A DNA stretch of 52,275 nt from Phycisphaerales bacterium (GTDB taxonomy: Bacteria; Planctomycetota; Phycisphaerae; Phycisphaerales; UBA1924): positions 1 through 52,275 of the forward strand of contig JBGSZV010000258.1 of assembly GCA_041750235.1 (NCBI GenBank), given 5' to 3'. Both the position numbers and the translations under genes were made by a program. This document shows, piece by piece, positions 348 through 27,118 of the stretch (positions are counted from its first letter, which is position 1; the number at the start of each line of letters is the position of its first letter). Under the pieces are notes generated by a model. The model was not told the origin of the DNA. It saw only the letters and a program-made list of their open reading frames with translations, and searched no databases.

Positions 348-359
348 AGTCGCCGCAAG

Positions 360-403: not shown

Positions 404-406
404 GGA

Positions 407-2395: not shown

Positions 2396-2403
2396 CGATA
2401 CCT

Positions 2404-9022: not shown

Positions 9023-9031
9023 GCCACGGCT

Positions 9032-11293
9032 ATGCATACCCTGTGCGCCATCGACGCCCTCATTGATCGCGTACCCGTCTTCGAGTCCGACCGCTACCCC
9101 GCCGACCTTGCGGCCCGCGAGAGGAGCAGCCAAACGACGCACGTGGCGGTGGTGGATGCGGCGGAGTCTGGCCGGTTCCTTGGACTGTTAGGACTCAAGG
9201 AACTGATGGAACGCCGCCGTGGCGCGGAGCTGACCTTCGGCGATCTGGTGGCCCGCACGACGACGCTCCGGGTCGGTCCACAAACGCCTTTACTGGAAGT
9301 GGTTGACCGACTCATCGAGCACAAGCAGGATGCGGCGGCCGTGCTCGATACAGATGGCCAGTATCTGGGGACGGTGACCGTTGCCGAAGCCCGGCAGCGG
9401 CTGGTGGAGCGCCGAGCCAAGGTCCTTGCAGAAGGCGAGCGGCACTTTCGGTCCATCTTCGAGCAGGTCGCGGTGGGCGTCGCCCAGGTCGCCCCCGACG
9501 GACGCTGGATGGAGGTCAACCCACGGCTGTGCACCATCGTTGGCTACACCAGGGAAGAACTCCTGGCCACGACGCTCTCAGCCATCATACACCCCGATGA
9601 CCAGGGCATCGACCATGACCACATGCTCCGCCTTCTCGCCGGCGAAATGGAGACGTACTCGACGGAGAAGCGATATCGTCGAAAGGACGGCGAGTTCATC
9701 TGGGTCAATGCCACTGTATCGCTGGTACGGGATGTGAAAAGGGGGAGAAGACCTTTGCATTTCGTATCGGTGGTCGAGGACATCAACGCGCGCAAGCTCG
9801 CCGAGGTGGTTGCCGCTGAAGCCGCGGCGAGTCTTGAACTGGCCGTGAAGGCCTCCAATATCGGTCTGTGGGATTGGGACCTGCGCACCAATAGGGCGTG
9901 CTTTTCACGGGTATGGAAGAGCCAGCTCGGTTACGCCGAGCACGAGATTGCCGACGAGTACTTCGAGTGGGAGCGGCGCGTTCACCCTGACGATCTGGGG
10001 TGGGCGAAGTCTCGTATCGAGCGATGCCTCACAGCGCCGTACGGGCCGTACGAGGTCGAGTTTCGCATGCGCCACAAGGATGGCTCATGGCGCTGGATGT
10101 ACACCCGGGGCGAGATCACCCGGGATGCAGTCGGCACGCCGATCCGCATGCTCGGCTGCCACGTCGATGTGACCGAATCAAAGCGGTTGACCAAGGATGC
10201 CCGGGCATCGGCGGCGCTTCTTCGGGCCACGATCGACGCTCTTGCGTTCAGCACCGCCGTCATCGACCGCACGGGACGGGTCGTCATTGTCAATCGATGG
10301 TGGCGCGCGTTCGCAGCGGAGAACGGCGGCGGCTACTCCACCGGGCTTGAAGGGGTCAACTACCTTGACGTCTGCGACCAGGTGTCGGGCGAATTGGCCG
10401 ATGATTCCAGCACCTTCTCCGCTTCGCTGCGATCGGTGCTCGCGGGCGGTTCGGATCCCATGCCCATGGAGTATGCCTGCCATTCTCCGACACAGAAACG
10501 GTGGTTCCAGGCCTGGATTCACGGGTTCTCCCAGGGTGCGGATCGTTTCGCGGTGATCACGCACCAGGATGTCACAGCGGTCCGTCTGGCTGCCGGGCGT
10601 GAAGCGGCCAACCAGCAACGCAAAACGGTCGCCATCATCGCCGCGGGCGTGGCCCACGAGTTCAACAGCTTGCTCTTCGCGGCGGCACTTCAGTTGCACC
10701 GACACCTCCACGGGCCGACGGGTGCTGGCGAGCCGAGCAAGTCGCTGGCGGTCGAGCTGATCCAGCAGGCCCAGTCGCTCGCTTCGGCGCTGCTCGACCT
10801 TTACTCCGGACCGGCGACCGGGCGGACCCAGTTGCTGTCGCTCTACCCGTGGCTGCGCGAGACGGTGGCGCGGCTCGCAACGGTCCTTCCTCCGGGCATC
10901 CACGTCACCACAGAGGTCGAGTTTGATCTACCCGAGGCCATCGGGCACGCTTTGGGACTGGAGCAGGTGCTCCGGAACCTGCTCTTCAACGCCGCCAATG
11001 TGCTGGGCGATCGCGGCGAGATCCGGGTGCGCGCGGCGCTGGCGTCCATCGATGGCCGACCGATGATTGAGATACGCGTCAGCGACAACGGCCCGGGCAT
11101 CCCCGAATCGCTGCGATCTCAAGTCTTTGAGCCGGGATTCACCACCAAGACGCAGGCGTACCGCTCGGGGCTGGGGCTCGCCATTGCGACCCAGCTGCTT
11201 GAGCAGTTCCGCGGCTCGCTTTCCTATGAGCCAGTCACGCCCACGGGTTCGACGTTCATCGTCCGGCTTGACGCCCGACTTGGAGATGCCTGA
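9032..11293 (+). CDS. CBS-pair / multi-PAS sensor histidine kinase
   Basis: CBS-like N-terminus, at least three PAS segments, HisKA H-box AAGVAHEFNSLL, and HATPase_c motifs (NLLFNAANV, DNGPGIP, GLGLA). Confidence 0.85.
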   Translation: MHTLCAIDALIDRVPVFESDRYPADLAARERSSQTTHVAVVDAAESGRFLGLLGLKELMERRRGAELTFGDLVARTTTLRVGPQTPLLEVVDRLIEHKQDAAAVLDTDGQYLGTVTVAEARQRLVERRAKVLAEGERHFRSIFEQVAVGVAQVAPDGRWMEVNPRLCTIVGYTREELLATTLSAIIHPDDQGIDHDHMLRLLAGEMETYSTEKRYRRKDGEFIWVNATVSLVRDVKRGRRPLHFVSVVEDINARKLAEVVAAEAAASLELAVKASNIGLWDWDLRTNRACFSRVWKSQLGYAEHEIADEYFEWERRVHPDDLGWAKSRIERCLTAPYGPYEVEFRMRHKDGSWRWMYTRGEITRDAVGTPIRMLGCHVDVTESKRLTKDARASAALLRATIDALAFSTAVIDRTGRVVIVNRWWRAFAAENGGGYSTGLEGVNYLDVCDQVSGELADDSSTFSASLRSVLAGGSDPMPMEYACHSPTQKRWFQAWIHGFSQGADRFAVITHQDVTAVRLAAGREAANQQRKTVAIIAAGVAHEFNSLLFAAALQLHRHLHGPTGAGEPSKSLAVELIQQAQSLASALLDLYSGPATGRTQLLSLYPWLRETVARLATVLPPGIHVTTEVEFDLPEAIGHALGLEQVLRNLLFNAANVLGDRGEIRVRAALASIDGRPMIEIRVSDNGPGIPESLRSQVFEPGFTTKTQAYRSGLGLAIATQLLEQFRGSLSYEPVTPTGSTFIVRLDARLGDA

Positions 11294-11946
11294 TGAGCAG
11301 CTTCTTTACGATTGTGTTCGCCGATGACCACCCGATCCTGCGGCAGGGACTTGAGGGGCAGTTCGCCGCCATGGAGGGGTTCACGGTCGTCGGCAGCGTC
11401 GGCGATGCCCAGTCGGCGGTAAACCTCTGCCGCGAGCGACGCCCGGATCTGCTGCTGCTGGATGTCGAGATGCCGGGGCGCGATGCGCTGGGGGCCATGA
11501 CCGACATCAAGGCGGTCAGCCCCGACACGCGGATCGTGATCTTTACCGCATTCTGCCGCGATCGGCTGATCGATCTGGCTATTGAAGGCGGGGCCGCTGG
11601 TTACCTGCTCAAGTCCGACTCTCCGCAGCACATCCTCGACGCACTGTCCAGAGTGATGAAGGGCGAGCGGGTGTACTCCAAGGATGTGCTGGCACGCCTC
11701 TCGCGATCGGGCCGTGAGGCGGACCATGGTGATGCTGGTGTGACGCTTCTCTCAACACTCAGCCCACGCGAGCTTGAGGTGCTCCGCTACATCGGCAAAG
11801 GCCAGGACAACGCCACGATGGCGGAGGCCATGCACCTCTCCATCCGGACCGTCGAGCGCCACGTATTGCGGCTGATGCGGCACATGCAGATCGACGACCG
11901 AACGCGCCTCACAGCGCTGGCGCACGAGTGCGGGCTGGTCTCCTGA
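11293..11946 (+). CDS. NarL/FixJ (LuxR-type HTH) response regulator
   Basis: ATGA overlap with the kinase stop. REC (FADDHPILRQG...LLLLDVEMPG) plus a C-terminal LuxR HTH (LSPRELEVLRYIGKGQDNATMAEAMHLSIRTVERH). Confidence 0.9.
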   Translation: MSSFFTIVFADDHPILRQGLEGQFAAMEGFTVVGSVGDAQSAVNLCRERRPDLLLLDVEMPGRDALGAMTDIKAVSPDTRIVIFTAFCRDRLIDLAIEGGAAGYLLKSDSPQHILDALSRVMKGERVYSKDVLARLSRSGREADHGDAGVTLLSTLSPRELEVLRYIGKGQDNATMAEAMHLSIRTVERHVLRLMRHMQIDDRTRLTALAHECGLVS

Positions 11947-12411
11947 ATACCGTCCTCCGGACACGATTGCGCAAGGACACGCAACAAGCCGCCTCAACCG
12001 AAGGGCGATACAAAGGGTGGCTCAGAAGCCGCGCGATTGTTGCTCCGTAGTCGCGTCAAATCCTCCGTGCCGCTGGTGGGGTTGTTCGTCCCACCATCGG
12101 TTTGTCTCTGTCCGCGCTGGAATCACCGCCCCTTCGCCCTCCGTCGCCCTCTGCGCGGCCGGAGGGTGGACGATCGATCAAGGAGACCGGAGTCGTGCCG
12201 CCATTGCTCCGACAGTCCGAAACCCACTCCGCTCCGGCCGGGCCTCACGCTCATCGATGTACGCAGCATGGCGTGCTGCGGGCGGCGCCGCATCTCGAAG
12301 CGCAGCACGAGTGGCTCGTGGGGCGCTCTTGCAAAGGCGAGGTTCGCCGCATCGATCATCCGAAGCATCATCAACAATGCGACGCGCGATGCAGGAAGAG
12401 CGGCGCCTGAG

Positions 12412-15400
12412 ATGACACCACGCAAGGCCGCAATGGCCCTGATCATCGGCGCATCAGCCGTGACCGTGCTCGTCGGCGCGATGACCGTCCCGCTGGCCCG
12501 GAGCGTGGCCCCGACCGTATCAGTGTCCGTTGCCCTTGTCCTTGGTGCGGCAGCGATCCCAGCGATCGCCGTGCCGCTGATCGTCAGGCGACTCCGGCGG
12601 CACTCTCGCAGCGCGCGCGGAAGCCCGCAGTTGAGCGCTGTGCATGGACTGATCGCGCTTGCGTGCGTCGGCGGTGTCATGCTGGTCAGCATCGCGGCGT
12701 GGCGGGCCTGCCAGATCGTCCGCAACCCACATGCCGTGGGACACCCCACGGCGGTCCGGGAGTCGCTGGTGGACACCGGGCGACTGCTCGCTCAGGGCAT
12801 CGAGCGGATCACCACGCCGGCCATGCAGCGCGGGCGGAAGATCGCCGCCGATCCGTGGACCATCGCCGCACTGACGACGGGGAACATCCAGGAGCTCACC
12901 AGCGTGTGCGACGCGGCGATCGCGAACAGCACCGAGATCGACGCGGTGGCCCTGTTCGACGCGCAGGGCCGGATCGTAGCGGTCAACACCCGGTACACCG
13001 ATGGGCGGGAGATCCCGCGCGATCGCGTCGACCGGATCATGGGCACGAGCTTCTCGGATCGAGAGATCATCAACAGTTGCGTGAACAACGCGGCCCGGTC
13101 TGACTCGCTAGAGTTTCAGACGACATGCGACATCACTCCGGCGTTCTTCGATTCCAGTGGGCTCTCTGTTGCGCACTCGATGCCCGTGTACGGCCCGTCG
13201 GGAGCACAGCTGGGCGTGGTCAGCACGCGGCTCCGCTTCGAGCGCATCACCGAACTTGCGGAAGTCCGAAGCTTTGCAGGCGGCCAGGGCACGGTGCGGT
13301 TTGTCACCGACAAGGGCGGGTTCTTCGATGAGGCGTACAACCGAGACGCGGAGCCCCCGATTCCGCCAGAGGAACTCGTGTCGCTCACCGCACCCCTGGC
13401 CGATGGCGGAGCTGACATGTCGACGGTCAGCCGGCGTGGCACCTTCCATGCCTTGTTCCGGATGATCGGGCTGAGAACGACCGACGGCGGGGGCATCCAG
13501 GTGCTGCTCAGCGTCCCTGAAGACTGGGTACGGCGCGAGGCGAACGCCGCGGCAGCGCTCGAGATCGGAACTCCCGCAGCGGCTGGGCTGCTACTTCTCC
13601 TCGTCGCGGCCACGCTGCGCTCTGGTCACCTTGTCAAGCAGCGTGCCCGGGTCGCCGCCATGGCCCTGCGCGAATCCCAAGCCCTGCGCAGCACCCTAGA
13701 CGCGCACGCGCTGGTCTCGGTGGCGGACACGAAGGGCCGGATCATCGAGGTCAACGAGCGGTTCTGTCTGGTCAGCGGGTATTCGCGGGAGGAACTGCTG
13801 GGGCACGACCACCGGGTGCTCAACTCGGGAACCCATCCCAAGGCTTTCTGGGTTGACGTGTGGCGCACGCTCGCGGCCGGACGGCCCTGGCGAGGCGAGG
13901 TGTGCAACAAGGCCAAGGACGGCTCGCTCTACTGGGTAGACACCATCATCGCGCCATTCACCGATGCCGACGGTACGACGACAAAGTACGTTTCGATCCG
14001 AACGGACATCACCGAGCGCAGGCGGACCGAAGACGCCCTCAAGCGCGGTGAAGAACGCTGGCGTGGTGTCATGGACTCGGGCATGTTGGGCCTGTTTATG
14101 TGGGACACCGACGGACGCATCTATGAGGGCAATCAAGCCTTCCTTGAAACCGTGGGGTACTCGACCGAGGACCTGCGCGAAGGCCGCATCCGATGGCGCG
14201 ACATGACCCCGCCGGAACTCGCTCCGCGGGATGAAGAAGCGCTGCGAGAGATCGCCGCGAGCGGGCGATGCCTGCCCTATGAGAAGGAGTACCTACGGAA
14301 GGACGGCTCGCGGGTACCGATCCTCCTCGGAGCCGCGAGATTGTCGGACGGAAAAGCCGACCAGGGCATCGCGTTCGCCATGGACATCACAGACCGCAAG
14401 CGGGCGGATGCGAAGGCCCGCGAAGCGCAGGAGTTTCTTCGCAACGTCATCGACTCGCTCTCAGCTCATACCGTCGTGATCAACAGCGAAGGGACCATTC
14501 TCTCGTTCAATCGCGCCTGGGAGGAGTTTGCGGTTCGCAACGGCGGCGCGGGGGCCGCCGTGCTGGAAGGGGCCAACTATCTGGCCGCCTGCGATCGTGC
14601 CGCGCCCAGGTGCGAGGAAGCCGCCCAGGTTGCGGCGGCGATCCGGGCGGTGCTCGCGGGCGAGTCAAGCCCGCCGATGATCGAGTACGCGTGCCATGCT
14701 CCGCAAGAAAAACGTTGGTTCTTCTGCTCCATCCGAGGCTTCTCGCTCAAGGAGCAGCGCTTCGCGGTCGTCTCACACCTCAACACCACAGCGCTCAAGC
14801 TGGCCGAGCGGGAGCTGACCCGATCCAACGAAGCACTGGCCAAAGCCCACGCCGAAGTGGAAGAACGCGTCAAACAACGAACGGCCCAGCTCGCCGACGC
14901 CACGGTGGCCGCGCAGGCCGCCAGCAAGGCCAAGAGCGAGTTTCTGGCGACGATGAGCCACGAGATCCGCACACCGCTTAACGGTCTGGTGGGCACTCTT
15001 GAGCTTCTTCAGGGCTCATCCCTCAGCGAGCAGCAGAAGCGTTACATCCAGATCGGCAAGACCTCGGCACTGTCGCTCACAAGCGTCATCAACGATATCC
15101 TCGACTTCTCCAAGGTTGAGGCAGGCAAGCTCGAACTCAGCCCCTTGGAGTTCAACCTCCACAGCGCCGTCGGTGACGTGATGGAGATGATGGCAGTACG
15201 GGCCTCGGAGAAGGGCCTCGAGTTGGCGTGCAGCATCGATCCGGCGCTGCCTGTGATGGTGTGCGGGGACGCCGAACGACTGCGACAGATCATCATCAAT
15301 ATGGTCAACAACGCCATAAAGTTCACGGAACACGGGGCCATCACCCTGCGCGTGGCCGGCGTCGGCAGCGGCGCCGATCAGCGCATGCGAATCCGTTTCA

Positions 15401-16548
15401 GTGTCAGGGACACGGGGATCGGGATCCCCAAGGATCGGCTCGACCGACTCTTCAAGGCGTTCTCGCAAACCGATGCCTCGTTCTCACGCAAGTACGGCGG
15501 CACGGGGCTTGGACTGGCCATCTGTAAGCAGCTGGCCGAGCTCATGGGCGGCTGCGTCGGAGTCGAGAGCGAACCCGGCGTCGGCTCGACCTTCTGGTTC
15601 GAGGTCGAACTCCCGGCCGTGGCCGACCAGTCGGTGGCCCTGCCGGCCAGGCTGACGGTGGACTGTCGCAGCCTACGCCTGCTGGTCGTCGAGGACCACG
15701 ATGCGCAGCGCGAGTTCATCGCCGAGTGCCTCGCATCCTTGCAATTCACAGTCGAGACGGCTGCGGACGGCGATGCGGCGCTCGCGATGCTGCTCGAGGC
15801 CGAAGCCGCCGGTCGCCCATTCGCGACGGTGCTGACCGACCAGGAGATGCCGGGGATGGACGGGATCGAAGTGGCGGCTGCGATGCAGTCGAAGGCCGAG
15901 CTCGCGAGCATCCCGGTGATTCTCCTGTCGTCAGCGCTCGAGATTGACCCCGAACGGGTACTGGCAGCCGGTTTTGCCTCTCACCTCACCAAGCCGATCC
16001 GACAGTCGTCGCTCCTGGATGCTGTGATGGCGGCGGTGGCTCCGAGGACAGGGACGATCACCCGCACGAACAACATGGATACCGGTGCGCCGGCGGATCG
16101 GTCACAAGCACTCGAGCAGACCAGTCGCAAACCACGCTTGCGGGTGCTCCTCGCCGAGGACAACGAGATCAATCAGTTGATTGCGTGCGAACTGCTGGCC
16201 AGGAACGGCTTCGACTGCACGGTGGCGTCCAACGGCATCGCCGCGGTGGCAGTCGTGTCGAAGGACCAGTTCGACCTTGTCCTGATGGACTGCCAGATGC
16301 CTGAGATGGATGGGTTCGAAGCCACACGCGAGATCCGCAAGCAAGAGCAGGCCGGAGCGCTCGCTGTACAGAAAGGTCGGCGTCTGCCGATCATCGCGCT
16401 CACAGCCAACGCCCTCAAGGGGGATCGTGAACGCTGCATCGAAGCCGGGATGGATGCGTACTCCACCAAGCCCATCGATCTCAAGCAACTGACAGCGACG
16501 ATCGAATCACTCATATCCGCACAGACGCCAGCCCGCTCGGCGGCGTAG
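12412..16548 (+). CDS. Hybrid sensor histidine kinase (2 TM + periplasmic domain, several PAS, HisKA, HATPase_c, two REC domains)
   Basis: H-box FLATMSHEIRTPLNG, HATPase motifs (NNAIKFT, DTGIGIP, GTGLGLAI), two receiver domains (LLVVEDHD..., VLLAEDNEINQ...VLMDCQMPEMDG). The start was set at an internal ATG before the first TM segment. The 12037 ORF start is probably an artefactual extension. Confidence 0.8.
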   Translation: MTPRKAAMALIIGASAVTVLVGAMTVPLARSVAPTVSVSVALVLGAAAIPAIAVPLIVRRLRRHSRSARGSPQLSAVHGLIALACVGGVMLVSIAAWRACQIVRNPHAVGHPTAVRESLVDTGRLLAQGIERITTPAMQRGRKIAADPWTIAALTTGNIQELTSVCDAAIANSTEIDAVALFDAQGRIVAVNTRYTDGREIPRDRVDRIMGTSFSDREIINSCVNNAARSDSLEFQTTCDITPAFFDSSGLSVAHSMPVYGPSGAQLGVVSTRLRFERITELAEVRSFAGGQGTVRFVTDKGGFFDEAYNRDAEPPIPPEELVSLTAPLADGGADMSTVSRRGTFHALFRMIGLRTTDGGGIQVLLSVPEDWVRREANAAAALEIGTPAAAGLLLLLVAATLRSGHLVKQRARVAAMALRESQALRSTLDAHALVSVADTKGRIIEVNERFCLVSGYSREELLGHDHRVLNSGTHPKAFWVDVWRTLAAGRPWRGEVCNKAKDGSLYWVDTIIAPFTDADGTTTKYVSIRTDITERRRTEDALKRGEERWRGVMDSGMLGLFMWDTDGRIYEGNQAFLETVGYSTEDLREGRIRWRDMTPPELAPRDEEALREIAASGRCLPYEKEYLRKDGSRVPILLGAARLSDGKADQGIAFAMDITDRKRADAKAREAQEFLRNVIDSLSAHTVVINSEGTILSFNRAWEEFAVRNGGAGAAVLEGANYLAACDRAAPRCEEAAQVAAAIRAVLAGESSPPMIEYACHAPQEKRWFFCSIRGFSLKEQRFAVVSHLNTTALKLAERELTRSNEALAKAHAEVEERVKQRTAQLADATVAAQAASKAKSEFLATMSHEIRTPLNGLVGTLELLQGSSLSEQQKRYIQIGKTSALSLTSVINDILDFSKVEAGKLELSPLEFNLHSAVGDVMEMMAVRASEKGLELACSIDPALPVMVCGDAERLRQIIINMVNNAIKFTEHGAITLRVAGVGSGADQRMRIRFSVRDTGIGIPKDRLDRLFKAFSQTDASFSRKYGGTGLGLAICKQLAELMGGCVGVESEPGVGSTFWFEVELPAVADQSVALPARLTVDCRSLRLLVVEDHDAQREFIAECLASLQFTVETAADGDAALAMLLEAEAAGRPFATVLTDQEMPGMDGIEVAAAMQSKAELASIPVILLSSALEIDPERVLAAGFASHLTKPIRQSSLLDAVMAAVAPRTGTITRTNNMDTGAPADRSQALEQTSRKPRLRVLLAEDNEINQLIACELLARNGFDCTVASNGIAAVAVVSKDQFDLVLMDCQMPEMDGFEATREIRKQEQAGALAVQKGRRLPIIALTANALKGDRERCIEAGMDAYSTKPIDLKQLTATIESLISAQTPARSAA

Positions 16549-16557
16549 GAGATTCCC

Positions 16558-17001
16558 ATGATTGATCAACCAGGAGCTGATGCACGAGCATTTGCCGGCA
16601 GGCCGGACACCCGCGGACCTCCTTTGGATACGTCTGCCCTGTTGCAGCAGTGCATGGGCAACGCCGAGCTAGTGGTCATGCTGGTCGACAAGTTCGAGAA
16701 GCAGGCCTGTGAGGACATCGCACGGATCGAGCAAGCCATTGCTACGAGAGATGTCGGACAGACGACCCGAGTATCGCACGCGCTCAAGGGCGCGGCCGGG
16801 GCGCTGTCTGCGATCGATGTACAGAGAACCGCAGCGGATATCGAGCTCTCCGCCCGCGAGAACCGGCTGGAGTCCGCCGCGGAGTGCTTCAACGAACTGA
16901 AGGCGGAGGTCGATCGTTGCTTGGCCTACTTACCCACCGTTCGCGCTGTTGCAAATGGCGCGGCACGGACCTCGACCCCTGAACCCGAAAGGATCCCATG
17001 A
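16558..17001 (+). CDS. Hpt (histidine phosphotransfer) domain protein
   Basis: HALKGAAGALSA phosphotransfer motif. AGGAG SD. Sits between the hybrid kinase and a response regulator. Confidence 0.8.
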   Translation: MIDQPGADARAFAGRPDTRGPPLDTSALLQQCMGNAELVVMLVDKFEKQACEDIARIEQAIATRDVGQTTRVSHALKGAAGALSAIDVQRTAADIELSARENRLESAAECFNELKAEVDRCLAYLPTVRAVANGAARTSTPEPERIP

Positions 17002-18014
17002 GAATTCTGGTCGCCGACGACTCCGACATCATTCGTACGCTCATGCAGACGACGCTTGCGAGCGCCGGTTTCGATGTCATCACAGCGACCGATGGAACCG
17101 AAGCATTCGAGATGCTGTGCGCAGGCGAGGCGAGGATGGTGATCTCCGATTGGGAGATGCCCGGGATGACCGGCCCTGAGCTCTGCCAGAAGCTGCGGGC
17201 CGCCGACCTGCCCAACTATATCTACGTCATGCTCGTAACTTCACACACAGCCGCCGAGGAACGCGTCGCGGGGCTCGCCGCAGGAGCGGACGATTTTGTC
17301 GCCAAGCCATTCAATCCCGCTGAACTGATCGAACGAGCCCGCGCGGGTGAACGAGTGCTCTCGCTTGAGACCCGTGATGTAGCCATCTTTGCCATGGCGA
17401 AACTAGCGGAGTCGAGGGACCCCGAGACTGGAGCGCATCTCGAGCGCGTGCAGGGCTACACCCGCGTCCTCGCACAGCAACTCGCTGCCCTGGAAAAATA
17501 CAAAGACATCGTGGACGCCGAGTACATCCGGCTGATGCACCTCACCAGTCCGCTGCACGATATTGGGAAGGTCGGTGTTCCAGACTCGGTCCTGCTCAAG
17601 CCCGATCGCCTGACGGACTTTGAGTTCACAATCATGAAGACACACGCTGCAATAGGTGCGGAAACTTTGGACGCAGCTCTCGCCAAGTTCCCGAACACCA
17701 AGTTCCTCCAAATGGCTCGCGACATCGCCGCAACACACCACGAACGCTGGGACGGTTCGGGGTACCCAAACGGTCTCGTCGGACCCGCCATCCCACTCAG
17801 CGGCCGCATCATGGCTCTCGCCGATGTCTATGACGCTCTGACATCCAAGCGTGTGTACAAGAACGCGTTCACGCACGAGATCGCACGATCGATGATCCTC
17901 AAAGATGCTGGCACGCACTTCGACCCGGACATCGTCGCGGCATTCGTGCGTTCCGAGCAACAGTTTATCGACATCCGTGCGCAGTACGCGGAGTCTCAAG
18001 CGATCGCGGCGTAG
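16998..18014 (+). CDS. Response regulator with an HD-GYP domain (RpfG-type c-di-GMP phosphodiesterase)
   Basis: ATGA overlap with Hpt. REC (ILVADDSD...ISDWEMPGMTG), HD (PLHDIGKVGVP) and HHERWDGSGYP motifs. Confidence 0.9.
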   Translation: MRILVADDSDIIRTLMQTTLASAGFDVITATDGTEAFEMLCAGEARMVISDWEMPGMTGPELCQKLRAADLPNYIYVMLVTSHTAAEERVAGLAAGADDFVAKPFNPAELIERARAGERVLSLETRDVAIFAMAKLAESRDPETGAHLERVQGYTRVLAQQLAALEKYKDIVDAEYIRLMHLTSPLHDIGKVGVPDSVLLKPDRLTDFEFTIMKTHAAIGAETLDAALAKFPNTKFLQMARDIAATHHERWDGSGYPNGLVGPAIPLSGRIMALADVYDALTSKRVYKNAFTHEIARSMILKDAGTHFDPDIVAAFVRSEQQFIDIRAQYAESQAIAA

Positions 18015-19067: not shown

Positions 19068-22004
19068 ATGCTGCGCGCACGATCGAGACATCGATACATC
19101 GTTGTCCTCATAGCTCTTTGCGCTGCGGGGTGCGCGACTTCTCCGTCCCCCACCCGACCGATGTCACAGTCTGATCCGCTGCCTTCGTCAGACCCCGATG
19201 ACTTTCTGATTGAACTGGGCCATTTGCTAGCAGCCCATGCAAGCGACGAGACCGCAACTATCGATTCACTGGCGGAGGGATGCCCTGCGAGCGCGGAGCC
19301 GGCAAGCGAACTCACGGGCACTTCTGCCGCCACCCAGACCGCAGAACTCACGCTCGAGCAGTTGGCTATCGCTGAAGGCTTCGTCGATCGCCTCGTTCAG
19401 ATCTCTGGCCAACGCAAACTTGGGCGTGTCTCAGCCAACGGCCTCCCGCCTTCAGAGCTTTACGATGCCGGAGTTGATGCTGGCTTGCCGACGCTTGCAG
19501 CACTCTGGTGCACAGCACGAACGGTTCATTCGGTTGCGCTTGTCTCTAGTCCAGCGTACTGGAAGGCGATCGCGCTGACGTGCGAGTCAGCCAGACTGCC
19601 AGAACACGCTGCGGAAGCGCTTCGTATCATGGCCGACTGCGATAACGCCGGTTCAATGACAAGCATATATGCACTCCGCAGTGCGGCATTTCAGTATGTT
19701 GACGCTGGCCTGATCCACTTTGGAGAGTCTGCGCTTGCAGCAGCAGTTGAGGCATTCGACCGATTGCCGTCGTCGATGCAGTCGGGCGTTCAGAGAGCTT
19801 CCCTGATGCTTGATGAAGCTAAGATGGACTTTCGCCAAGCCCGCTACGACACGACGATCGAGAAGGCGTCCCGTGCTTTGTCTCACTTGACCGCAACGAG
19901 CGGTTCTGCGGCAGACTTGCCAATCGAGAAACTGATGTTCTCAGCGAAGTCCCTGGCGATGCGCGCTCGGATTCAAATGGCACTCGCTAAATCCGACACT
20001 TCGGAGCTATTGAGCCTTCGCAGCGCCGCACTGCTTGTGGCTAGCGAAGCATCACAGAGTCCGGCTGTACCAGAAGTTGAGCGTCCCGTTCGCGTGCTGG
20101 AACTCTTGAACTCGATTCAACTCATTGACCTCGTCGCTGGCGCATCGGTTGAGCAAGAAGCGGCAGACTTCGCGATGTCGGATCAGACACGCGCTGCCGT
20201 TGAAATCGTCTTGCCCAATCTCGGAGCAGCCGAGCTTGATGCCAAGGCATGCCTGGAGCTGTTCAAGCTGCACGCTCGATCGTTTGATTGGCCCGACGAG
20301 TTGTGGAAGCGGCACACCACTGACCGTCTCCTCGCGTTCGCGTTGCCTCGAAGCACTGACCCAACCTGGAGAAAGATCGGGTACTTGTTCCTAGCGAACC
20401 AGATCGGCGCGGAGGCGACTTCGGGCTTGGGGCTCGTGCGGGATCGAGATCGTCGATTGTACCGCACGACCAACGGCCACGTGCTCGCAGAACTCTTCGT
20501 GGAAGCGAGTGTCGGCACGATCGAGCTCTACCCCAATCAGCGCGATTCGCTCATGGAACTGTCGCTCATGGCAGTGGAGAGAATGCGATCCGCGGGGATC
20601 ACGGAACAGCAGTCCGCCCGGCTGATAGAGAGCGATGCGGAGATCCGTCGCTCGCTCGTGCTGCTGGAGAGATACCACGCATTCTTGGACAACGCTGACT
20701 TCTTGGACTTGCTTAAGGGGACTTCGGACCGCCAACTCGTGCCAAAGAACGTTCTTGAGTATGCGGACCGTCTCAAGCAGCTTGTTGCTGCACGACATGA
20801 TCGCGCTTTGACAGAGCTCCAGTCTACGCTCGGTCCATTGTCCGGATACTTCGCTCGGGAGTTGGACCATCAAACGATTGGTCTCCCAATGAGTGAGCAT
20901 GATGCGTGCCTTGTGCTGTTTGTCGGCGAGCAAATGTTTGTGTCTTGGGTGGTTCAGCCCGGACGACCGGTAAAGTACTCCGTGAATCGAGAGTGGACTG
21001 CAACGGGGGTGCGCAAATGGCGCGACCAAGCTCTGTCGGATCTCCAAGCAGCGCGAAGCTGGTCGGAGCTAGAGCATTCTGTGAATCTCCAGCTGAACCC
21101 ATTTGCTCGCTGGATTCTGTCATCTGTTCCGACTGACGTCGAACGGCTGTATGTGGTGTGCCCGAGCGAGTTATCTGATATTCCGATCGAAGCACTTCCG
21201 CTGGCTTCAGGTCGAAGAGCTGCAGATGTACTGCAGTTGAGCTATGTTCCCAGCCTGCTGTGGCTGTCGAGCATGACCGACGAAGCCACTCGCCGAGAAT
21301 TGGCGTGGCGTTCGGGTGAAACGGGCGCGCTGGTCGTCGCTTCGGCTGAAGGCGTCGACGCACCCGGACGCCACCTCGCGCCGCTGATCGGCATGAGCAC
21401 AGAAGCGTCAGCCGTTGCTACCTCGGTTCGTCGCATCCGTCAGAGTGAACGTACGCGACAGCTCCGCGCGCTGGTAAGCCTCTTGAGCCATTTCAAGGAA
21501 CATATGGCTCCGAACGAGATGTCTGCGTTCGAAATGAGCAAGTTCCGGGAGTTGGCCAGCGCAGCTGGTTTTGTGTACTTGGGAGCTCACGGCGTGAAGA
21601 CTCCGGGCGACGATTTGTTGTCGTTTTTCGGTGTGGCAGACCCGGCTACTCACGAGTATGTGACAGCGGAGTCCATGCTCGACCTTGAGTTGCGATCCAC
21701 GGACCTAGTCCTACTCGCAGCATGTTCGAGCCTCCACGCGGGGTTTGATCAGGCCGAAGAGCCACTCGGGTTGTTCAGGCCGTTCTTGCTCTCCGGTGTG
21801 AGCTCAGTGGTCGGACCGTGCCAGGACGTAATGGAGGCATACGCAGGGCCATTCGTCAGGTCATTCTGCGGTCGGCTGGTTGAACAAGGTAAGACCCGGG
21901 CGTTTCACAGTGTGCGGAATGAAATGTTGCTGAGCGACCGAGTGCCCCCAAAGGAGATTCTGAAATGGCGATTCACCGGCGTGATGGATACCGTCCGTCA
22001 ATGA
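19068..22004 (+). CDS. CHAT-domain (caspase-like) protease with a lipoprotein signal peptide and a long helical-repeat N-terminal region
   Basis: N-terminus MLRARSRHRYIVVLIALCAAGC. C-terminal CHAT His/Cys dyad context (FVYLGAHGV...DLVLLAACSS). 978 aa. Lower GC. Confidence 0.75.
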   Translation: MLRARSRHRYIVVLIALCAAGCATSPSPTRPMSQSDPLPSSDPDDFLIELGHLLAAHASDETATIDSLAEGCPASAEPASELTGTSAATQTAELTLEQLAIAEGFVDRLVQISGQRKLGRVSANGLPPSELYDAGVDAGLPTLAALWCTARTVHSVALVSSPAYWKAIALTCESARLPEHAAEALRIMADCDNAGSMTSIYALRSAAFQYVDAGLIHFGESALAAAVEAFDRLPSSMQSGVQRASLMLDEAKMDFRQARYDTTIEKASRALSHLTATSGSAADLPIEKLMFSAKSLAMRARIQMALAKSDTSELLSLRSAALLVASEASQSPAVPEVERPVRVLELLNSIQLIDLVAGASVEQEAADFAMSDQTRAAVEIVLPNLGAAELDAKACLELFKLHARSFDWPDELWKRHTTDRLLAFALPRSTDPTWRKIGYLFLANQIGAEATSGLGLVRDRDRRLYRTTNGHVLAELFVEASVGTIELYPNQRDSLMELSLMAVERMRSAGITEQQSARLIESDAEIRRSLVLLERYHAFLDNADFLDLLKGTSDRQLVPKNVLEYADRLKQLVAARHDRALTELQSTLGPLSGYFARELDHQTIGLPMSEHDACLVLFVGEQMFVSWVVQPGRPVKYSVNREWTATGVRKWRDQALSDLQAARSWSELEHSVNLQLNPFARWILSSVPTDVERLYVVCPSELSDIPIEALPLASGRRAADVLQLSYVPSLLWLSSMTDEATRRELAWRSGETGALVVASAEGVDAPGRHLAPLIGMSTEASAVATSVRRIRQSERTRQLRALVSLLSHFKEHMAPNEMSAFEMSKFRELASAAGFVYLGAHGVKTPGDDLLSFFGVADPATHEYVTAESMLDLELRSTDLVLLAACSSLHAGFDQAEEPLGLFRPFLLSGVSSVVGPCQDVMEAYAGPFVRSFCGRLVEQGKTRAFHSVRNEMLLSDRVPPKEILKWRFTGVMDTVRQ

Positions 22005-22064: not shown

Positions 22065-22877
22065 CTAGCACCTCGCGCTGCACGGCGTTCCGCGGAGATT
22101 TGCCGGATAGTGAGTACAGGGGAGCGGCGACCCTCGCAGTTCGTGCGCCGACCGGATCTCTCCCTCGTTGCCGCAGAGCTTTCGATAGATGGGAATGCGG
22201 TGTTCGCCCGCCCACTCAGTGAAGTAGTCGGTGAGGAGGTCCAACGCGGCATACGCCAGCTGCGCGTTCGCCGCGATGACTTGCTGCTGCGGCCCCGCGT
22301 CGCCGTACCGGCTCGCCTCCTTGTCCAACAACTCATCCCGCAAGAAGCCCAGGCACCGCATGCAGGGACCGCCGGGTTCAGACAACAGCACTTGCCCGCC
22401 CACCCGATGATGCCCTGAGGCCAGCCGCTTCACGCTCATCCCGATATCAATGAGAGGGATCATGTACCGACGCGCAGCGGCCTCCAGTTGATCCCTCCCC
22501 GCAAATGAGTCGACACAGCTGAAGACCACGTCGCACGATCGCAGCGCCGGGGCTTGGTCACGCCAGTCTGCTTGGTGGACCTCGATCTCCGCGCTGGGCT
22601 GAAGGCCACGAATCAAGCGCGTCATGATCTCTGTCTTGGGCCGTGAGGCTCGAATGTCCTCATCCGTGATGCCGACCAAGCGATGACGATGCACTTCCGA
22701 AACCGGTTTGGGATCGAAGAGCACATAGTGCTGAAATCCATAGTGGGCGAGACCCTGCACGATGTGGGACCCCCCTCCGCTCAGCCCGACGACACCGATT
22801 CGCGCCGACCGCATCGCGGCGCCGAGGCGAGGCTCCAGGAAGCCCTGCCGATTATCCGACTGCGAGATCGCGACCAT
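22065..22877 (-). CDS. ThiF/MoeB-family E1-like adenylyltransferase (BilD-like)
   Basis: Rossmann motif IGVVGLSGGGSHIVQGL, downstream CVDSFAGR and GGPCMRCLGF. Start chosen at the ATG with GGAGG 9 nt upstream (ORF-track start 22913 is also possible). Confidence 0.8.
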   Translation of the reverse strand: MVAISQSDNRQGFLEPRLGAAMRSARIGVVGLSGGGSHIVQGLAHYGFQHYVLFDPKPVSEVHRHRLVGITDEDIRASRPKTEIMTRLIRGLQPSAEIEVHQADWRDQAPALRSCDVVFSCVDSFAGRDQLEAAARRYMIPLIDIGMSVKRLASGHHRVGGQVLLSEPGGPCMRCLGFLRDELLDKEASRYGDAGPQQQVIAANAQLAYAALDLLTDYFTEWAGEHRIPIYRKLCGNEGEIRSAHELRGSPLPCTHYPANLRGTPCSARC

Positions 22878-23442
22878 TGGGAAACACCTCCATCGGGCGA
22901 CCGACGACCACAACGCGACCGTGCGAGGACGGTCGGCTGTGACCGGGTAGCCATACTTGAGCGGTCAAGGAGTCGTCACTGAGGACGATCGCGCCGTGCA
23001 CACCATCGGGTTGCGCCGCCTTCCACGCGTTGACGAGCTTTGGGTAGGACGCCAGATCGACTCGGCTGAATCCGGGCGCTCCCTTTCCATGATGAGCATG
23101 CACGTGAAGCACCCCCACGCCATCGCTGAGAGCACGCTGAATGGTGGAGGTGATCGGAGCCGCCCCGATTCGCGCCCCCACGGTCTTGTCTTCGATGTAG
23201 CCGGATTCAGTGACGGGCTCATAGTCCACGACCAGAATGATCGTTTCGTCGCGCGCCCCCACTCCGCTTCGCGTGTAGAGAAACCCGACTCGTTCATATG
23301 CGACCGGGTGCGGGCGGCTCAGGTCCGCCCGCACCCGGTCCAGAAGCAGCTTCTCGATTCGGAGCACCCAGTTCACCGCGTCACCCCCAAATGCTCGGCG
23401 AAGAGTTCCGCCAGTCGCAGACCTGGCTTCTTGATGCTCCAC
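22852..23442 (-). CDS. JAB/MPN (JAMM) metallopeptidase (BilC-like)
   Basis: Conserved Glu (AYERVGFLY) and HVHAHHGKGAPGFSRVD (HxH-x7-S-x2-D). An alternative GTG start at 23376 forms a GTGA overlap with the E2 stop. Confidence 0.85.
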   Translation of the reverse strand: MEHQEARSATGGTLRRAFGGDAVNWVLRIEKLLLDRVRADLSRPHPVAYERVGFLYTRSGVGARDETIILVVDYEPVTESGYIEDKTVGARIGAAPITSTIQRALSDGVGVLHVHAHHGKGAPGFSRVDLASYPKLVNAWKAAQPDGVHGAIVLSDDSLTAQVWLPGHSRPSSHGRVVVVGRPMEVFPNGRDLAVG

Positions 23443-23720
23443 GAGTACTTTGTCCAGTTGCGGTCCAGACGGTGTTCGCTGGACGGATTCTGGTTCCGAG
23501 ATGATCGAGTGGTGAGTGGATGCGCAAAGAACATCTTGCTGGTGCCGTGGTCTTCTTGACGCCCCGGCTCAAACATGACGTCGCACGCCCCCGGCTGGCA
23601 TCCGTCGCGGAGGGGAAGGGCAGGAAACAGCCAGAACGTCCTGCCGCTCTCCTCGTGCACTTGGAACTTGCCGAACAGGCGGACGACTTCGTCGATTTGG
23701 TCTTGGGGAAAGTTGGTCAT
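23373..23720 (-). CDS. Small E2/UBC-like protein (prokaryotic E2 family, BilB-like), assignment by context and weak motif
   Basis: 115 aa, located between the Ubl and JAB genes. Candidate catalytic Cys in LRDGCQPGACDVMFEP. GAGG SD before ATG 23720. Confidence 0.55.
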   Translation of the reverse strand: MTNFPQDQIDEVVRLFGKFQVHEESGRTFWLFPALPLRDGCQPGACDVMFEPGRQEDHGTSKMFFAHPLTTRSSRNQNPSSEHRLDRNWTKYSWSIKKPGLRLAELFAEHLGVTR

Positions 23721-23728
23721 GGTGCACC

Positions 23729-23977
23729 TCAGGAAGCGCACGCGCTGTCGGGCTGGCTGAGAAACAACTCACGTCCGACGATGTCGACGAACGCGGCGTT
23801 GTCGAGCGGCACCACGCGCCCGTCGATCACCTGGAGCAGCACATCGCACTCGGGCACGCCGAAGATGACCTTGAGCTTTGCCACCAGAGACGGCCCCGAC
23901 GGGATGTCGAAGGGCTTGTTGTTGCAGCTGACGGTGACGGTCGGGCCGGCCGAAACGGGATTCGATGTCGTTGTCAT
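23729..23977 (-). CDS. Single-domain ubiquitin-like beta-grasp protein (BilA-like / multiubiquitin-type), 82 aa
   Basis: First gene of the operon, with GGAGG SD 5 nt before ATG 23977. The pattern VTVSCNNKPFDIPSG...VPECDVLLQVIDGRVVPLDNAAFVDIVGRELF fits a beta-grasp. It ends ...SQPDSACAS with no terminal Gly. Confidence 0.55.
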   Translation of the reverse strand: MTTTSNPVSAGPTVTVSCNNKPFDIPSGPSLVAKLKVIFGVPECDVLLQVIDGRVVPLDNAAFVDIVGRELFLSQPDSACAS

Positions 23978-24162
23978 TGAGACCTCCGGAAGGATTGCGA
24001 AACGCGGAACGCCGGACCACATGGACTGACGTCCCAGAACTGGGGCAGTTTTGCCGTGAGAACCCGTACTGTCAATAGCGCTGACATGGAATTCTGTGGT
24101 TTTTGCTGACCACGGATGCCAGCCTCATTGACCTTCCGCATCCGCCGGTTTACCGTTCAAGC
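23978..24162. promoter_or_regulatory. Divergent promoter/operator region between the Ubl operon and the XRE-ImmA genes
   Basis: 185-nt gap between divergent starts. Short inverted repeats TGTCA-N7-TGACA (24070-24086) and GTGGT-N8-ACCAC (24096-24113). Confidence 0.45.
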
Positions 24163-24534
24163 ATGGCCAAACCCCTAGCAGTAGACGTCCACGAACGAGA
24201 CCTCTACACCCAAATAGGGGCCCGAATCCGAAAGCTGCGTGAGGAAGCCAAGCTCTCTCAAGAGCAGCTCGCCCAGGGTGTGGGCCTGACGCGGACGTCG
24301 ATCACCAACGTTGAGCAGGGCAAGCAGAAGATGCTGCTCCACACTTTCGTGGAGATCGCTCACCAGCTATCCGTGGACCCAGCAGAAATGCTTCGCCCCG
24401 CAGTCGGTCCTCCATCCACGGCTGCCGTGCCGCGGGACGCGATCCCGTCCGGCCTGCCAGCCAAGGAGCGCGAGTTCATCGAACGCGGACTCGCCGTGGC
24501 GTCCAAGCGCACTCGGACCCCAGCCCGAAGCTAA
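24163..24534 (+). CDS. XRE-family HTH transcriptional regulator (CapH-like)
   Basis: IGARIRKLREEAKLSQEQLAQGVGLTRTSITNVEQGKQ is a classic Cro/C1 HTH. Confidence 0.8.
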   Translation: MAKPLAVDVHERDLYTQIGARIRKLREEAKLSQEQLAQGVGLTRTSITNVEQGKQKMLLHTFVEIAHQLSVDPAEMLRPAVGPPSTAAVPRDAIPSGLPAKEREFIERGLAVASKRTRTPARS

Positions 24535-24537
24535 GCC

Positions 24538-25074
24538 ATGCCCGCCAGTCGCCAGCAAATTCAGGACTTGGCGACCAACTTGCTCGCCGAGTGCGGAGTG
24601 GATCGCCTCCCGGTCCCGGTAGAAGCCATCGCGCGGCGGTGTGGAGCCGTCGTGGTGCAGGTCGACGCCGATGACGAACTATCCGGCTTCTTGATGAGAC
24701 GCCCTGCTGCAGAGGGAAATCTGATCGGTGTCAACCGGGCGCACCACCCCCTTCGCCGGCGCTTCACTGTCGCCCACGAACTTGGGCACATGCTGCTGCA
24801 CACCCAGGAACCCCTGCACGTTGACCGCCAGACCGGGGTCTTCCTTCGGAACCACGTGTCATCCGCAGGCGTGGAGCGGAACGAGACCGAGGCGAACCTC
24901 TTCGCAGCAGAACTCCTCATGCCGAAGGAATGGGTGCTCCAACACTTCGCCCAGCGAAGAGACCCTCAGGTGGTCGAAGATGCCGAACTTCGAGAGTTGG
25001 CCAAGCGGTTCGGCGTGAGCCAGCAGGCGATGACCATTCGCCTCGCCAACCTCGGGGCGATTAGCCTCGGCTGA
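24538..25074 (+). CDS. ImmA/IrrE-family zinc metallopeptidase (CapP-like)
   Basis: HELGHMLLH (HExxH) motif, followed by the conserved E...ANLFAAELLMP segment. Lies 3 nt after the XRE stop. Confidence 0.85.
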   Translation: MPASRQQIQDLATNLLAECGVDRLPVPVEAIARRCGAVVVQVDADDELSGFLMRRPAAEGNLIGVNRAHHPLRRRFTVAHELGHMLLHTQEPLHVDRQTGVFLRNHVSSAGVERNETEANLFAAELLMPKEWVLQHFAQRRDPQVVEDAELRELAKRFGVSQQAMTIRLANLGAISLG

Positions 25075-25294: not shown

Positions 25295-27118
25295 TTAGCC
25301 ACAGCTTGATCCGAACACGCTGAGCATGACCGACAGGTCCGCGCCGTTCACGAATCCGTCGCCGTTGATATCGGCGCCCGAGCCCGGATCAACGGATGAA
25401 CCGAACTGCGACAGCAGCACCGAAAGGTCTGCCCCGTTGATCAACTGATCGCCGTTGACATCGCCGGCGCAGTAGGGAGGAACCACGAGTTCTGCCGTCG
25501 CCATCAGGATCGGCGCTCCACGCCCGGTCCGCGACCACAGATCGTGCAGGACCTCGCCCCAGTTGTCGCTGACGTTGTTGTTCCGCAGCTCCTCGATGTA
25601 GTGCTTCGGCGTGTTCTGGTAGTACACGTTCGCCACCGCGCGCACGGCACCCGCGGGGACCGAGTAATTCACGTCCGCCCAGTACTGCCCGTCGGCATAG
25701 GTCGCCCCCACCACCGGCGCGCCGCCCGCGATGTACCGCGCGTTGTTGAAACCCCTCGGCGGGATGCGGTTGTCCTTGACGATGGTGTCGGCGAGCGACA
25801 TGTGGCCCGTCGGACCCGCGGGAAGTCCGGTCACGCCCGCCGCATAATCGCTCAATCCCACGTGCATCTCAAACACCGTCGTCGATGCTTCATCGAGTTC
25901 CGCGGTCGTATCGTCGTACGCTCCTCGCTCGGCGATCAGCGCATCGGACGCATCAAAGTACTTCACGTTCACCCACACACGCCGCCCTTCGATGTGACCG
26001 GTCGGCAGTTTGTGACCACTCTCGTTCACGACCCGCACCCGCAGGTTCAGTCCCAGTCGCGCCAGCGACAGCGACGCCGCCCGCTGCAGCATGCTCACCG
26101 CCTTGGCACGCCCGGCGGCAATATCCGCCTGATTCACATTCGGATCGTCCTGCGTGTACTCCGCGATCAAGTCCAGCACCTGCGCGGCAGCGCCCGAGAA
26201 ATCGTGCCGCTTGATGTCCGGGCGCGTCGGCCCGAAGAAGCAGCCCTTGCCCTCCACCGTCGGCATGTGGCAGTCCTGACACGTGCTCACCGTCGTCAGA
26301 GAGCCGCCGAACCGCCCATCCATGTTGACCCCGCCGTTCGCAAATGCGCTGAGCTTCCACTCTGTGTACGTACGCTCCAGTGGGAACTGCGCCCAAGGGT
26401 CGGGATTCGGGTTGCTCTCGTCGATCGTGTTGTAGCGGTACGTCCCGTCTGGCTGCTTGGTCGTCGCGACATTTCCCACATCGTGGCACGTGCCGCACAT
26501 GTCGCCGCTTCGCATGAACGCTGAGGCAATCGTGGTGTGACCCGACGACGCATCCGTGTACGGCCCGCGCCGCGTCCCGGACGGGTCAAGCACGAACATC
26601 GCGTTCCCGAAGAACCCCGGGATATCCGCCAATTGGCTCAGAATGGTTTGATCCACCGCGGGGCTGATGCCCGGCTTGTACACGGGATCGACCATGCTGT
26701 GACAGAAGTGGCAGTTCACGCCGTCGCGATCGACCGCGTCCAGTGTGCTGCCGTCGGCCTGGTTCGCATGCCCGGTCACGATGGCCATCGGAACGTGGCA
26801 CCGCAGGCAGTAATACCCGACGTTGTCCACGTCCTGATTGGCGGTGCTCATCTGCGCAAAGAACAGCGGATCGCGCCCCGCCTGGCCCATCAGGCTGCCG
26901 TTCCAGCTGCTGAAGGGTTCGGAGTTCGCGTCGAAGTTGCCGTGGCACATGCTGCAGTTGTTGGACGTGGTGATCGCGCTGGGCGACACGTCCCCTACCT
27001 GCGTGCCGGGAACGTGGAAGTCCTCAAGTGTCATCGGGATGGGCGAGGCAGTTGCGCCCGCGAAAGCCAAGAGCACGGTTCCGGTGCCGCACAGTCGGAC
27101 GAGGGACGCGGATCGCAT
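25295..27118 (-). CDS. Secreted pentaheme c-type cytochrome with a C-terminal dockerin-like repeat pair
   Basis: Five CxxCH sites (CSMCH, CLRCH, CHFCH, CGTCH, CQDCH), an N-terminal signal peptide, and a C-terminus DVNGDQLINGADLSVLLSQFGS / DINGDGFVNGADLSVMLSVFGS. AAGGAG SD. Confidence 0.8.
   Translation of the reverse strand: MRSASLVRLCGTGTVLLAFAGATASPIPMTLEDFHVPGTQVGDVSPSAITTSNNCSMCHGNFDANSEPFSSWNGSLMGQAGRDPLFFAQMSTANQDVDNVGYYCLRCHVPMAIVTGHANQADGSTLDAVDRDGVNCHFCHSMVDPVYKPGISPAVDQTILSQLADIPGFFGNAMFVLDPSGTRRGPYTDASSGHTTIASAFMRSGDMCGTCHDVGNVATTKQPDGTYRYNTIDESNPNPDPWAQFPLERTYTEWKLSAFANGGVNMDGRFGGSLTTVSTCQDCHMPTVEGKGCFFGPTRPDIKRHDFSGAAAQVLDLIAEYTQDDPNVNQADIAAGRAKAVSMLQRAASLSLARLGLNLRVRVVNESGHKLPTGHIEGRRVWVNVKYFDASDALIAERGAYDDTTAELDEASTTVFEMHVGLSDYAAGVTGLPAGPTGHMSLADTIVKDNRIPPRGFNNARYIAGGAPVVGATYADGQYWADVNYSVPAGAVRAVANVYYQNTPKHYIEELRNNNVSDNWGEVLHDLWSRTGRGAPILMATAELVVPPYCAGDVNGDQLINGADLSVLLSQFGSSVDPGSGADINGDGFVNGADLSVMLSVFGSSCG

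Follow-up and report, generated by a model that had tools for sequence, protein, structure and literature searches.

The bacterial ubiquitin-like conjugation systems closest to the operon described here are Bil (BilA to BilD) and Bub. This operon lies on the minus strand, at positions 22065 to 23977 of a 52,275-nucleotide stretch of DNA from a Phycisphaerales bacterium (assembly GCA_041750235.1, contig JBGSZV010000258.1), which was analyzed as a whole and is called the window in what follows. It codes for a ubiquitin-like protein (Ubl), a protein related to ubiquitin-conjugating enzymes (E2), a JAB peptidase, and an activating enzyme (E1). Its products are stand-alone relatives of the Bub machinery and not of Bil, in a conserved and apparently undescribed variant. 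We consider it most likely (probability of about 0.6) that the operon is a four-gene relative of Type I Bub ("6e") that runs conjugation without catalytic cysteines.

In Bil, the E1 (BilD) is a multidomain protein with the arrangement IAD-AAD-CYS, the E2 (BilB) carries a conserved catalytic Cys with an adjacent His, and all Ubls share a conserved C-terminal Gly, which a short nonconserved extension may follow (PMC10557695). Class 6e of Iyer et al. 2006 consists of a polyUbl, an inactive E2-like protein, a JAB-E1 fusion, and a Zn protein. Two types of Bub fall within it: Type I (6e.1), with BubAB, BubCD, and BubE, and Type II (6e.2), with BubA, BubBD, and BubE. Mutagenesis has shown that Bub works through oxyester intermediates on a Tyr of the E1 and a Ser of the E2 (Ye et al., bioRxiv 10.1101/2024.11.21.623953). 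The authors state that every Bub operon encodes BubE, a serine protease of the DUF6527 type; DUF6527 was also the seed for their catalogue of 544 operons, and in all the rows examined of its part 1 of 7 the JAB is fused to the E1. The Bub papers and a 2026 follow-up rely on this DUF6527-based set. A further comparison is offered by the sulfur-carrier systems (ThiF/MoeB with ThiS/MoaD, CysO/Mec+, QbsE/QbsD), which share with our operon a homodimer-type single-domain E1 with a CxxC Zn site and a small beta-grasp protein; as in the JAB-processed members of this group, the JAB may trim the Ubl tail. Unlike them, the family of the window has an E2-fold protein with an invariant Ser, defense-type regulators and contexts, and no sulfur-transfer neighbors.

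Gene organization

Four consecutive open reading frames on the minus strand (23729-24022, 23373-23741, 22852-23442, and 22065-22913) make up the operon. The Ubl gene (23729..23977, 82 amino acids [aa]) was given the ATG at 23977, with a GGAGG 7 nucleotides (nt) upstream. The E2-like gene (23373..23720, 115 aa) starts at the ATG at 23720, 8 nt past the Ubl stop and preceded by GAGGTG. The JAB gene (22852..23376, 174 aa) starts at the GTG at 23376, in a GTGA overlap with the E2 stop, and the E1 gene (22065..22877, 270 aa) at the ATG at 22877, overlapping the end of the JAB gene. These last two starts were taken from the gene calls of the near-identical loci L001 and L002 (related loci carry the prefix L). 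Compared with the same two relatives, the ratio of nonsynonymous to synonymous substitution rates (dN/dS) is 0.07 to 0.27 for each of the four genes, so all four are expressed and constrained proteins.

An earlier note on this DNA had described a tightly coupled Ubl-E2-JAB-E1 conjugation-type operon at these coordinates, with 82 aa and 115 aa for the first two proteins. The gene calls agree with the sizes and the boundaries, and the starts, overlaps, conserved gene order, and folds bear out the operon itself. It had also made its proposal depend on a beta-grasp fold for the shorter protein and a UBC fold for the longer one, and the predicted folds are indeed a beta-grasp and a diverged UBC. 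Among the Pfam, NCBIfam, and PADLOC libraries, only the E1 was recognized; the E2 stayed below threshold, and the Ubl and the JAB had no matches at all. Nothing useful came from searching the PDB sequences with individual Ubl, E2, and JAB sequences as queries. Nonetheless, profile and fold comparisons relate each of the four proteins to a Bub part, and it is very probable that they are Bub-type homologs acting as one functional unit.

E1 and JAB

Pfam finds one ThiF domain only in the E1 (1e-21). Its best solved relative is BubCD of Citrobacter, with E values of 3e-12 for the single sequence and 4e-25 for a profile, ahead of ThiF and MoeB, and hhalign aligned its whole length with the one adenylation domain that BubCD has (probability of 100%, E value of 1.8e-42). 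The Bub reference set for hhalign comprised the Type I operons of Pseudanabaena PCC 7367, Nostoc PCC 7120, P. galeata, and Mesorhizobium 131-2-5 plasmids. Of the two motifs that had been pointed out in this protein, GxGGxGS and CxxC, both are present, the Gly-rich loop reading GLSGGGS, but the CxxC (C172-x2-C175) is half of a structural Zn site formed by C172, C175, C254, and H256, and not a catalytic element. Per-column residue counts gave no conserved Cys in the crossover segment (residues 176 to 198). Within this Cys-free loop, Y191 is invariant (15/15), so that the E1 has the two traits of its Type I Bub counterpart, a single adenylation domain and a crossover loop without Cys but with an invariant Tyr.

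The JAB matches the other half of BubCD. Searched against PDB, its profile had the BubCD JAB domain as best match (E value of 0.015), collinear over 75-167/75-165, and hhalign aligned it with the N-terminal domain of the four BubCD proteins over 163 columns (95.5%, E value of 1.6e-8). The residues E28, H93-x-H95, and S104-x2-D107 are invariant in the family, as is H91. The JAMM motif had been read as E...HxH-x7-S-xxD; its residues stand, but the spacing becomes x8 once the protein is aligned to BubC. We identified 65 JAB homologs, of about 168 aa and 36 to 48% identity, none of them with a Pfam domain on record. The four domains follow each other in the same order as their homologs in Type I Bub (Ubl, E2, JAB, E1), but the JAB, there fused to the E1, is here a stand-alone gene between those of the E2 and the E1. 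In this placement, and in having four separate genes in the order Ubl-E2-JAB-E1, the layout resembles Bil; N-terminal parts of the Ubls that vary and include coiled coils are a further shared trait.

E2-like protein

The similarity of the 115-aa protein to known E2s is much more distant. The Pfam family Prok-E2_E gave only a subthreshold match (E value of 0.009), and the link to Bub was revealed only by the fold search and by profile-profile comparison with plasmid BubB sequences. An AlphaFold 2 (AF2) model from an 85-sequence alignment (predicted local distance difference test [pLDDT] of 85, predicted template modeling score [pTM] of 0.81) consists of a helix, a four-strand meander, a beta-hairpin, and a second helix. 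The first Foldseek match of this model in PDB is BubB of Citrobacter (9eae_C; TMq of 0.71, root mean square deviation [rmsd] of 3.6 Å, probability of 1.0); canonical UBCs reach template modeling (TM) scores of about 0.4 only. Against Type I BubB, hhalign gave a probability of 92% and an E value of 6e-7. In this alignment, Ser93 falls on the Ser of "QRWSRH" in Type I BubB, which a Pseudanabaena-Citrobacter alignment identifies as the catalytic S333 of Citrobacter BubB.

Conservation was counted in two sets of family members, of 68 and 85 sequences (153 in total). Both S93 and W89 are present in 153/153, W94 is invariant and H110 nearly so, and S93 is the candidate nucleophile. No Cys is invariant among the 153. 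The CxxxxC motif that had been proposed as the active site (C41-x4-C46 in the window) does not hold up, as C41 is a Cys in 53/68 and 3/85 members and C46 in 17/68 and 2/85; the residue that is invariant and aligns with the catalytic Ser of BubB is Ser93. Position 51 is a Cys in 51/68 and 81/85 members and a Glu in the window (about 23568-23570) and its close relatives. The protein therefore shares with Type I Bub an invariant Ser that replaces the Cys, but its surroundings differ, with the Ser flanked by W and accompanied by K/R62 and H110 instead of His(+2) and Asp. K62 sits at the position of D299 in Bub, where the family has R or K. A Ser with a basic residue and a His is also found in Type II Bub (Lys and His there), and K/R62 and H110 could mimic that pair.

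Ubl

The AF2 model of the Ubl (pLDDT of 83) shows a beta-grasp with a disordered tail, and its top Foldseek matches are the multi-ubiquitin proteins of Citrobacter, Methylobacterium brachiatum, and E. coli ZDHYS365, together with BubA(155-229), with TM scores of 0.66 to 0.71 and an rmsd of about 2 Å. Multidomain relatives of the window Ubl match the Pfam family Multi_ubiq. It is therefore a multi-ubiquitin-type protein, as in Type I Bub, with one beta-grasp domain and a flexible tail.

In the family, the C terminus of the Ubl reads [G/A]-x-[S/A]-[S/A] at the stop (SGGSS, DGGAS, VGQSS, or DAASA, for example), and the window protein ends in SQPDSACAS, without Gly. The length of this tail is fixed, with one or two extra residues in only about 5/53 members, and the G at position -4 is mostly conserved across the family. 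In natural Ubl-E2 fusions, the junction comes directly after the tail motif. In true Type I Bub, by contrast, Ubls encoded on their own stop exactly at a Gly (KANFG and TTTEG), the site where BubC cleaves the fused form (Bub literature). If the analogy with Bub extends to this position, the mature reactive end of the Ubl would be a Ser or an Ala, where the family ends in SS, AS, or SA. Alternatively, the JAB would trim the last residues and expose the G or A at -4.

Distribution and genomic context

A word-indexed homolog search with the E2 alone returned one protein, and an exhaustive HMMER scan was needed, which identified 82 of 1.84 billion proteins as family representatives. Nearly all E2 homologs have 111 to 120 aa, with a few fused behind two or three beta-grasp domains. 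In the loci first fetched, all four proteins are encoded in one order (21/21; jackhmmer, open reading frames of the loci), and a 9-sequence subset of the JAB alignment led to 10 genome loci. The window and the related loci examined for gene structure have four unfused open reading frames, Ubl-E2 fusions being rare. The hosts belong to Planctomycetota, Acidobacteriota, Nitrospiraceae, Alpha-, Beta-, and Gammaproteobacteria, and Chloroflexota. The family is also frequent on conjugative plasmids, adjoining toxin-antitoxin (TA) modules. Ten PLSDB plasmids matched the JAB (at least 80% of its length in 8/10), 9/10 of them conjugative or mobilizable, in hosts that include Rhizobium leguminosarum, R. 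indigoferae, Bosea vaviloviae, Methylocystis rosea, Methylovirgula, Bradyrhizobium, and Sphingobium herbicidovorans. The annotated RefSeq plasmid loci L031 and L032 have the same gene order, under the product names "multiubiquitin domain-containing protein," hypothetical, hypothetical, and "ThiF family adenylyltransferase." No family member was found in the phage genomes and viral contigs searched.

The family lacks BubE, which distinguishes it from both types of Bub. A phmmer search with the Pseudanabaena BubE found no match in the window or in L001 to L021, L023, and L024, while the control Type I locus L022 was matched, and the same loci (window, L001 to L021, L023, and L024) contain no C-x3-C...H-x2-C protein. 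PF20137 was absent from the Pfam lists of the neighbors, the annotated plasmid loci being without BubE and the true Bub loci with it. Type II Bub shares the Cys-free Ser/Tyr logic and the multi-ubiquitin Ubls, but its E2 forms a fusion with the E1, a JAB is usually missing, and BubE is present, so it differs from the window family in all three respects. In the open-access literature, we found no account of a four-gene form that is unfused, lacks BubE, and has a Ubl ending in SS.

The neighbors across the loci include EcoRII/Dcm/Vsr, Mrr, NACHT, RES-Xre, UvrD with PD-(D/E)XK, XhoI, and Thoeris, and no locus examined has a rhodanese, a sulfurtransferase, or a biosynthetic neighbor. These mobile-element or defense contexts are another resemblance to Type I Bub. 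A UvrD-type helicase with a PD-(D/E)XK nuclease adjoins the cassette in three independent loci, L006 (3057-6005), L023 (7023-12777), and L031 (6167-9444), and RES-Xre TA pairs flank it in L006 and L031, as they flank a true Type I Bub operon in L027; the association may reflect linkage or mere clustering in defense islands. Some copies are rearranged. In the alphaproteobacterial L016, the E1 matches fall into two pieces (6420-7067 and 9674-10072) about 2.6 kb apart, as if an insertion had interrupted the gene. In L025 (6001-12000), the Ubl and the E2 are fused by an apparent loss of the Ubl stop (…SGGSFVM…) and the JAB is seemingly split; this cassette sits between a BrxR/WYL regulator and XhoI plus Thoeris (SIR2/STALD, ThsB TIR). 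On a Spirosoma plasmid, one annotated coding sequence spans the matches to JAB and E1 and adjoins a Tn3 transposase.

Regulation

Upstream of the operon, on the plus strand, there is a divergent pair of regulatory genes. The first (24103..24534) codes for an XRE-type helix-turn-helix (HTH) repressor of the CapH kind (Pfam HTH_31/HTH_3, 2e-11; PADLOC capH, 1.2e-9), whose probable start is the ATG at 24163, giving 123 aa as in L002. The second (24538..25074, 178 aa) codes for a CapP-like ImmA/IrrE (M78) metallopeptidase (Pfam Peptidase_M78, 1.4e-24; PADLOC capP, 6.8e-35) with an HExxH motif. As it covers only positions 3 to 154 of the 242 in the capP profile, the peptidase is a short, ImmA-like form, and its sensing domain may be missing or different; in other loci of the family the M78 peptidase has 270 to 297 aa. 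The intergenic region between the operon and the pair (23978..24162) presumably holds the promoters and the operator of both, and neither a sigma-70 consensus site nor an inverted repeat or operator palindrome was found in it.

The divergent HTH arrangement recurs in L002, L004, L011, L023, and L032, and across the family the divergent partner is either an HTH protein with an M78 peptidase or a BrxR/WYL regulator. Type I Bub likewise has CapH/CapP or CapW/BrxR regulators, and matching CapH/CapP or BrxR/CapW regulators accompany 39% of Bub operons (Bub literature). Regulators of the CapH/CapP and BrxR types are responsive to DNA damage and also control CBASS and other immune operons. The regulator pair and the defense-island contexts suggest a damage- or phage-induced role. 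On the Rhizobium and Methylocystis plasmids (L023, 2024-3427; L032, 1048-2439), an "exonuclease domain-containing protein" comes right after the short ImmA/IrrE gene and might be part of the regulatory module.

Proposed mechanism and alternative explanations

Under the reading that we favor, the HTH repressor would keep the operon off until the ImmA/IrrE-type peptidase, once activated, relieved repression, as CapH/CapP do upon DNA damage or infection. The homodimer-type E1 would then adenylate the small-residue C terminus of the 82-aa Ubl, and Tyr191 in its crossover loop would accept the Ubl as an oxyester. From there the Ubl would move to Ser93 of the BubB-like E2, aided by K/R62 and H110, and the E2 would pass it to a lysine of a target protein. 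The JAB, as the sole peptidase of the system, would trim extended or fused Ubl precursors, remove conjugates, or do both; conjugate removal is the job of BubE in Bub proper and would here be done by the JAB in its place. By analogy with Bub, we regard this oxyester route as probable. A stronger version, that the family is a third, self-contained Bub-like type with a Cys-free E1(Tyr)-E2(Ser) cascade, a Ubl activated at a C-terminal Ser or Ala, a stand-alone JAB replacing BubE as the sole enzyme for processing or deconjugation, and a Bil layout acquired by convergence, is somewhat doubtful.

Several observations weigh against this picture. The resemblance of the E2 to BubB is remote: the Foldseek E value is 0.056, the profile alignment has 11% identity, and the family profile had no match among PDB sequences. 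The position two residues after the Ser is K, R, Q, or S, so the His(+2) and Asp pattern of Type I is absent. Tyr191 of the E1 lies two positions off the invariant Tyr of BubCD in the alignment, and the Ubl tail of the window has no Gly, so that the E1 would be adenylating a C-terminal Ser. With a Cys at position 51 in most of the family, a thioester route is possible in those members. Last, no target or effector gene is evident, and Bub operons have so far not been demonstrated to protect against phages (Bub literature).

The earlier note had matched the operon to Bil. An antiphage system of that type would run a thioester cascade, with catalytic Cys on both E1 and E2, and transfer the Ubl onto phage structural proteins. 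The gene order with four separate genes, the defense-like context, and the Cys at E2 position 51 in about 85% of the family agree with this assignment, but the defining features of Bil are missing. The E1, with 270 aa and one adenylation domain, has no CYS insertion comparable to the IAD-AAD-CYS of BilD and no crossover Cys; the E2 lacks both an invariant Cys and the Cys/His pair, with a Glu at position 51 in the window; and the Ubl of the window lacks the conserved Gly. Moreover, the top sequence and fold matches are all to Bub parts, although BilA-D structures are also in PDB. The lack of PADLOC matches for Ubl, E2, and JAB points the same way, but weakly, as PADLOC 2.0.0 may contain no Bil models. 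The Bil assignment is thus largely refuted and very improbable, while the hedge that accompanied it, that the genes might belong to a less studied multi-ubiquitin/prokaryotic-E2 clade, went in the right direction. A different possibility is that the E2 is a noncatalytic, RWD-like, Ubl-binding adaptor and that the E1 does no more than adenylate the Ubl, in the service of sulfur transfer or of another small-molecule or peptide modification, with the JAB exposing a Gly. Mec+ and QbsD act in this manner on CysO and QbsE, removing their terminal residues to expose a Gly, and the two-residue [S/A][S/A] extension after the mostly conserved G at -4 resembles such a JAB-removed propeptide. The absence of a conserved Cys in the E2 and the fact that, after Bub, the E1 is nearest to ThiF and MoeB would also fit, and a role of this kind was proposed for class 6e by Iyer et al. 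2006. Against it, the aligned Ser has been shown to serve catalysis in Bub E2s of the same fold (Ye et al., bioRxiv 10.1101/2024.11.21.623953), and the conservation of Ser93, W89, and H110 is unexpected for a mere adaptor. The setting (defense or mobile contexts, damage-responsive regulators, and no sulfurtransferase, rhodanese, or biosynthetic neighbors) also speaks against this explanation, which we judge to be decidedly unlikely.

The remaining alternative keeps the Cys-free chemistry and changes its purpose, from antiphage defense to a general response to DNA damage or stress or to the maintenance of plasmids and integrative and conjugative elements. The CapH/CapP- and BrxR-type regulators answer DNA damage, the lack of phage protection by Bub so far is in line with such a function, and the family is frequent on conjugative plasmids beside TA modules and absent from the phage genomes and viral contigs searched. 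However, the cassette is recurrently adjacent to bona fide defense systems (restriction-modification, Thoeris, NACHT, and Mrr), and the same regulators govern CBASS and other immune operons. A stress or maintenance role is rather unlikely. The defense role proposed earlier continues to be plausible in view of these defense-like contexts, and we put an antiphage function at slightly less than an even chance.

Other genes in the window

Downstream of the operon, a plus-strand gene (19068-22004) converges on the E1 gene; its 978-aa product has a CHAT (caspase-like) protease domain at the C terminus. It was considered as an effector of the operon and rejected, as related loci do not have it beside the cassette; the gene is probably independent and possibly belongs to another conflict system. 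On the other side, at 25295-27118 (minus strand), a multiheme cytochrome (Cytochrome_C7/MtrC-like matches) carries a C-terminal dockerin type I domain, an unusual pairing. The region 6457-18014 is a dense two-component cluster with an HDOD response regulator, a PAS/CBS histidine kinase, a LuxR-type response regulator, a 1,503-aa hybrid kinase, and a response regulator with an HD domain. Near the start of the window, in the region 198-4176, a tRNA-Glu(CTC) gene has directly next to it a large serine recombinase (407-2395, minus strand) and an N6/N4 DNA methyltransferase (2758-4176, minus strand), and one border of an integrated element may lie here. A search for another copy of the 3' end of the tRNA-Glu within the window found none, so an island boundary could not be set.

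Significance

To our knowledge, Bub systems are the only ubiquitin-like cascades that work on oxyester (Tyr, Ser) instead of thioester intermediates. The family described here probably uses the same chemistry with a minimal set of four separate genes and no BubE, which tells the essential components (Ubl, E2-Ser, E1-Tyr) apart from the accessory ones. As three of the four window proteins escape the current Pfam, NCBIfam, and PADLOC models, defense annotation does not see the family, and a label of Bil is easily given to it by mistake. Its presence in many phyla and on conjugative plasmids of culturable Rhizobium, Bosea, Methylocystis, and Sphingobium makes it tractable by experiment. The conserved non-glycine C terminus of its Ubl, if it is the reactive end, would broaden the rules for the substrates that an E1 can take.

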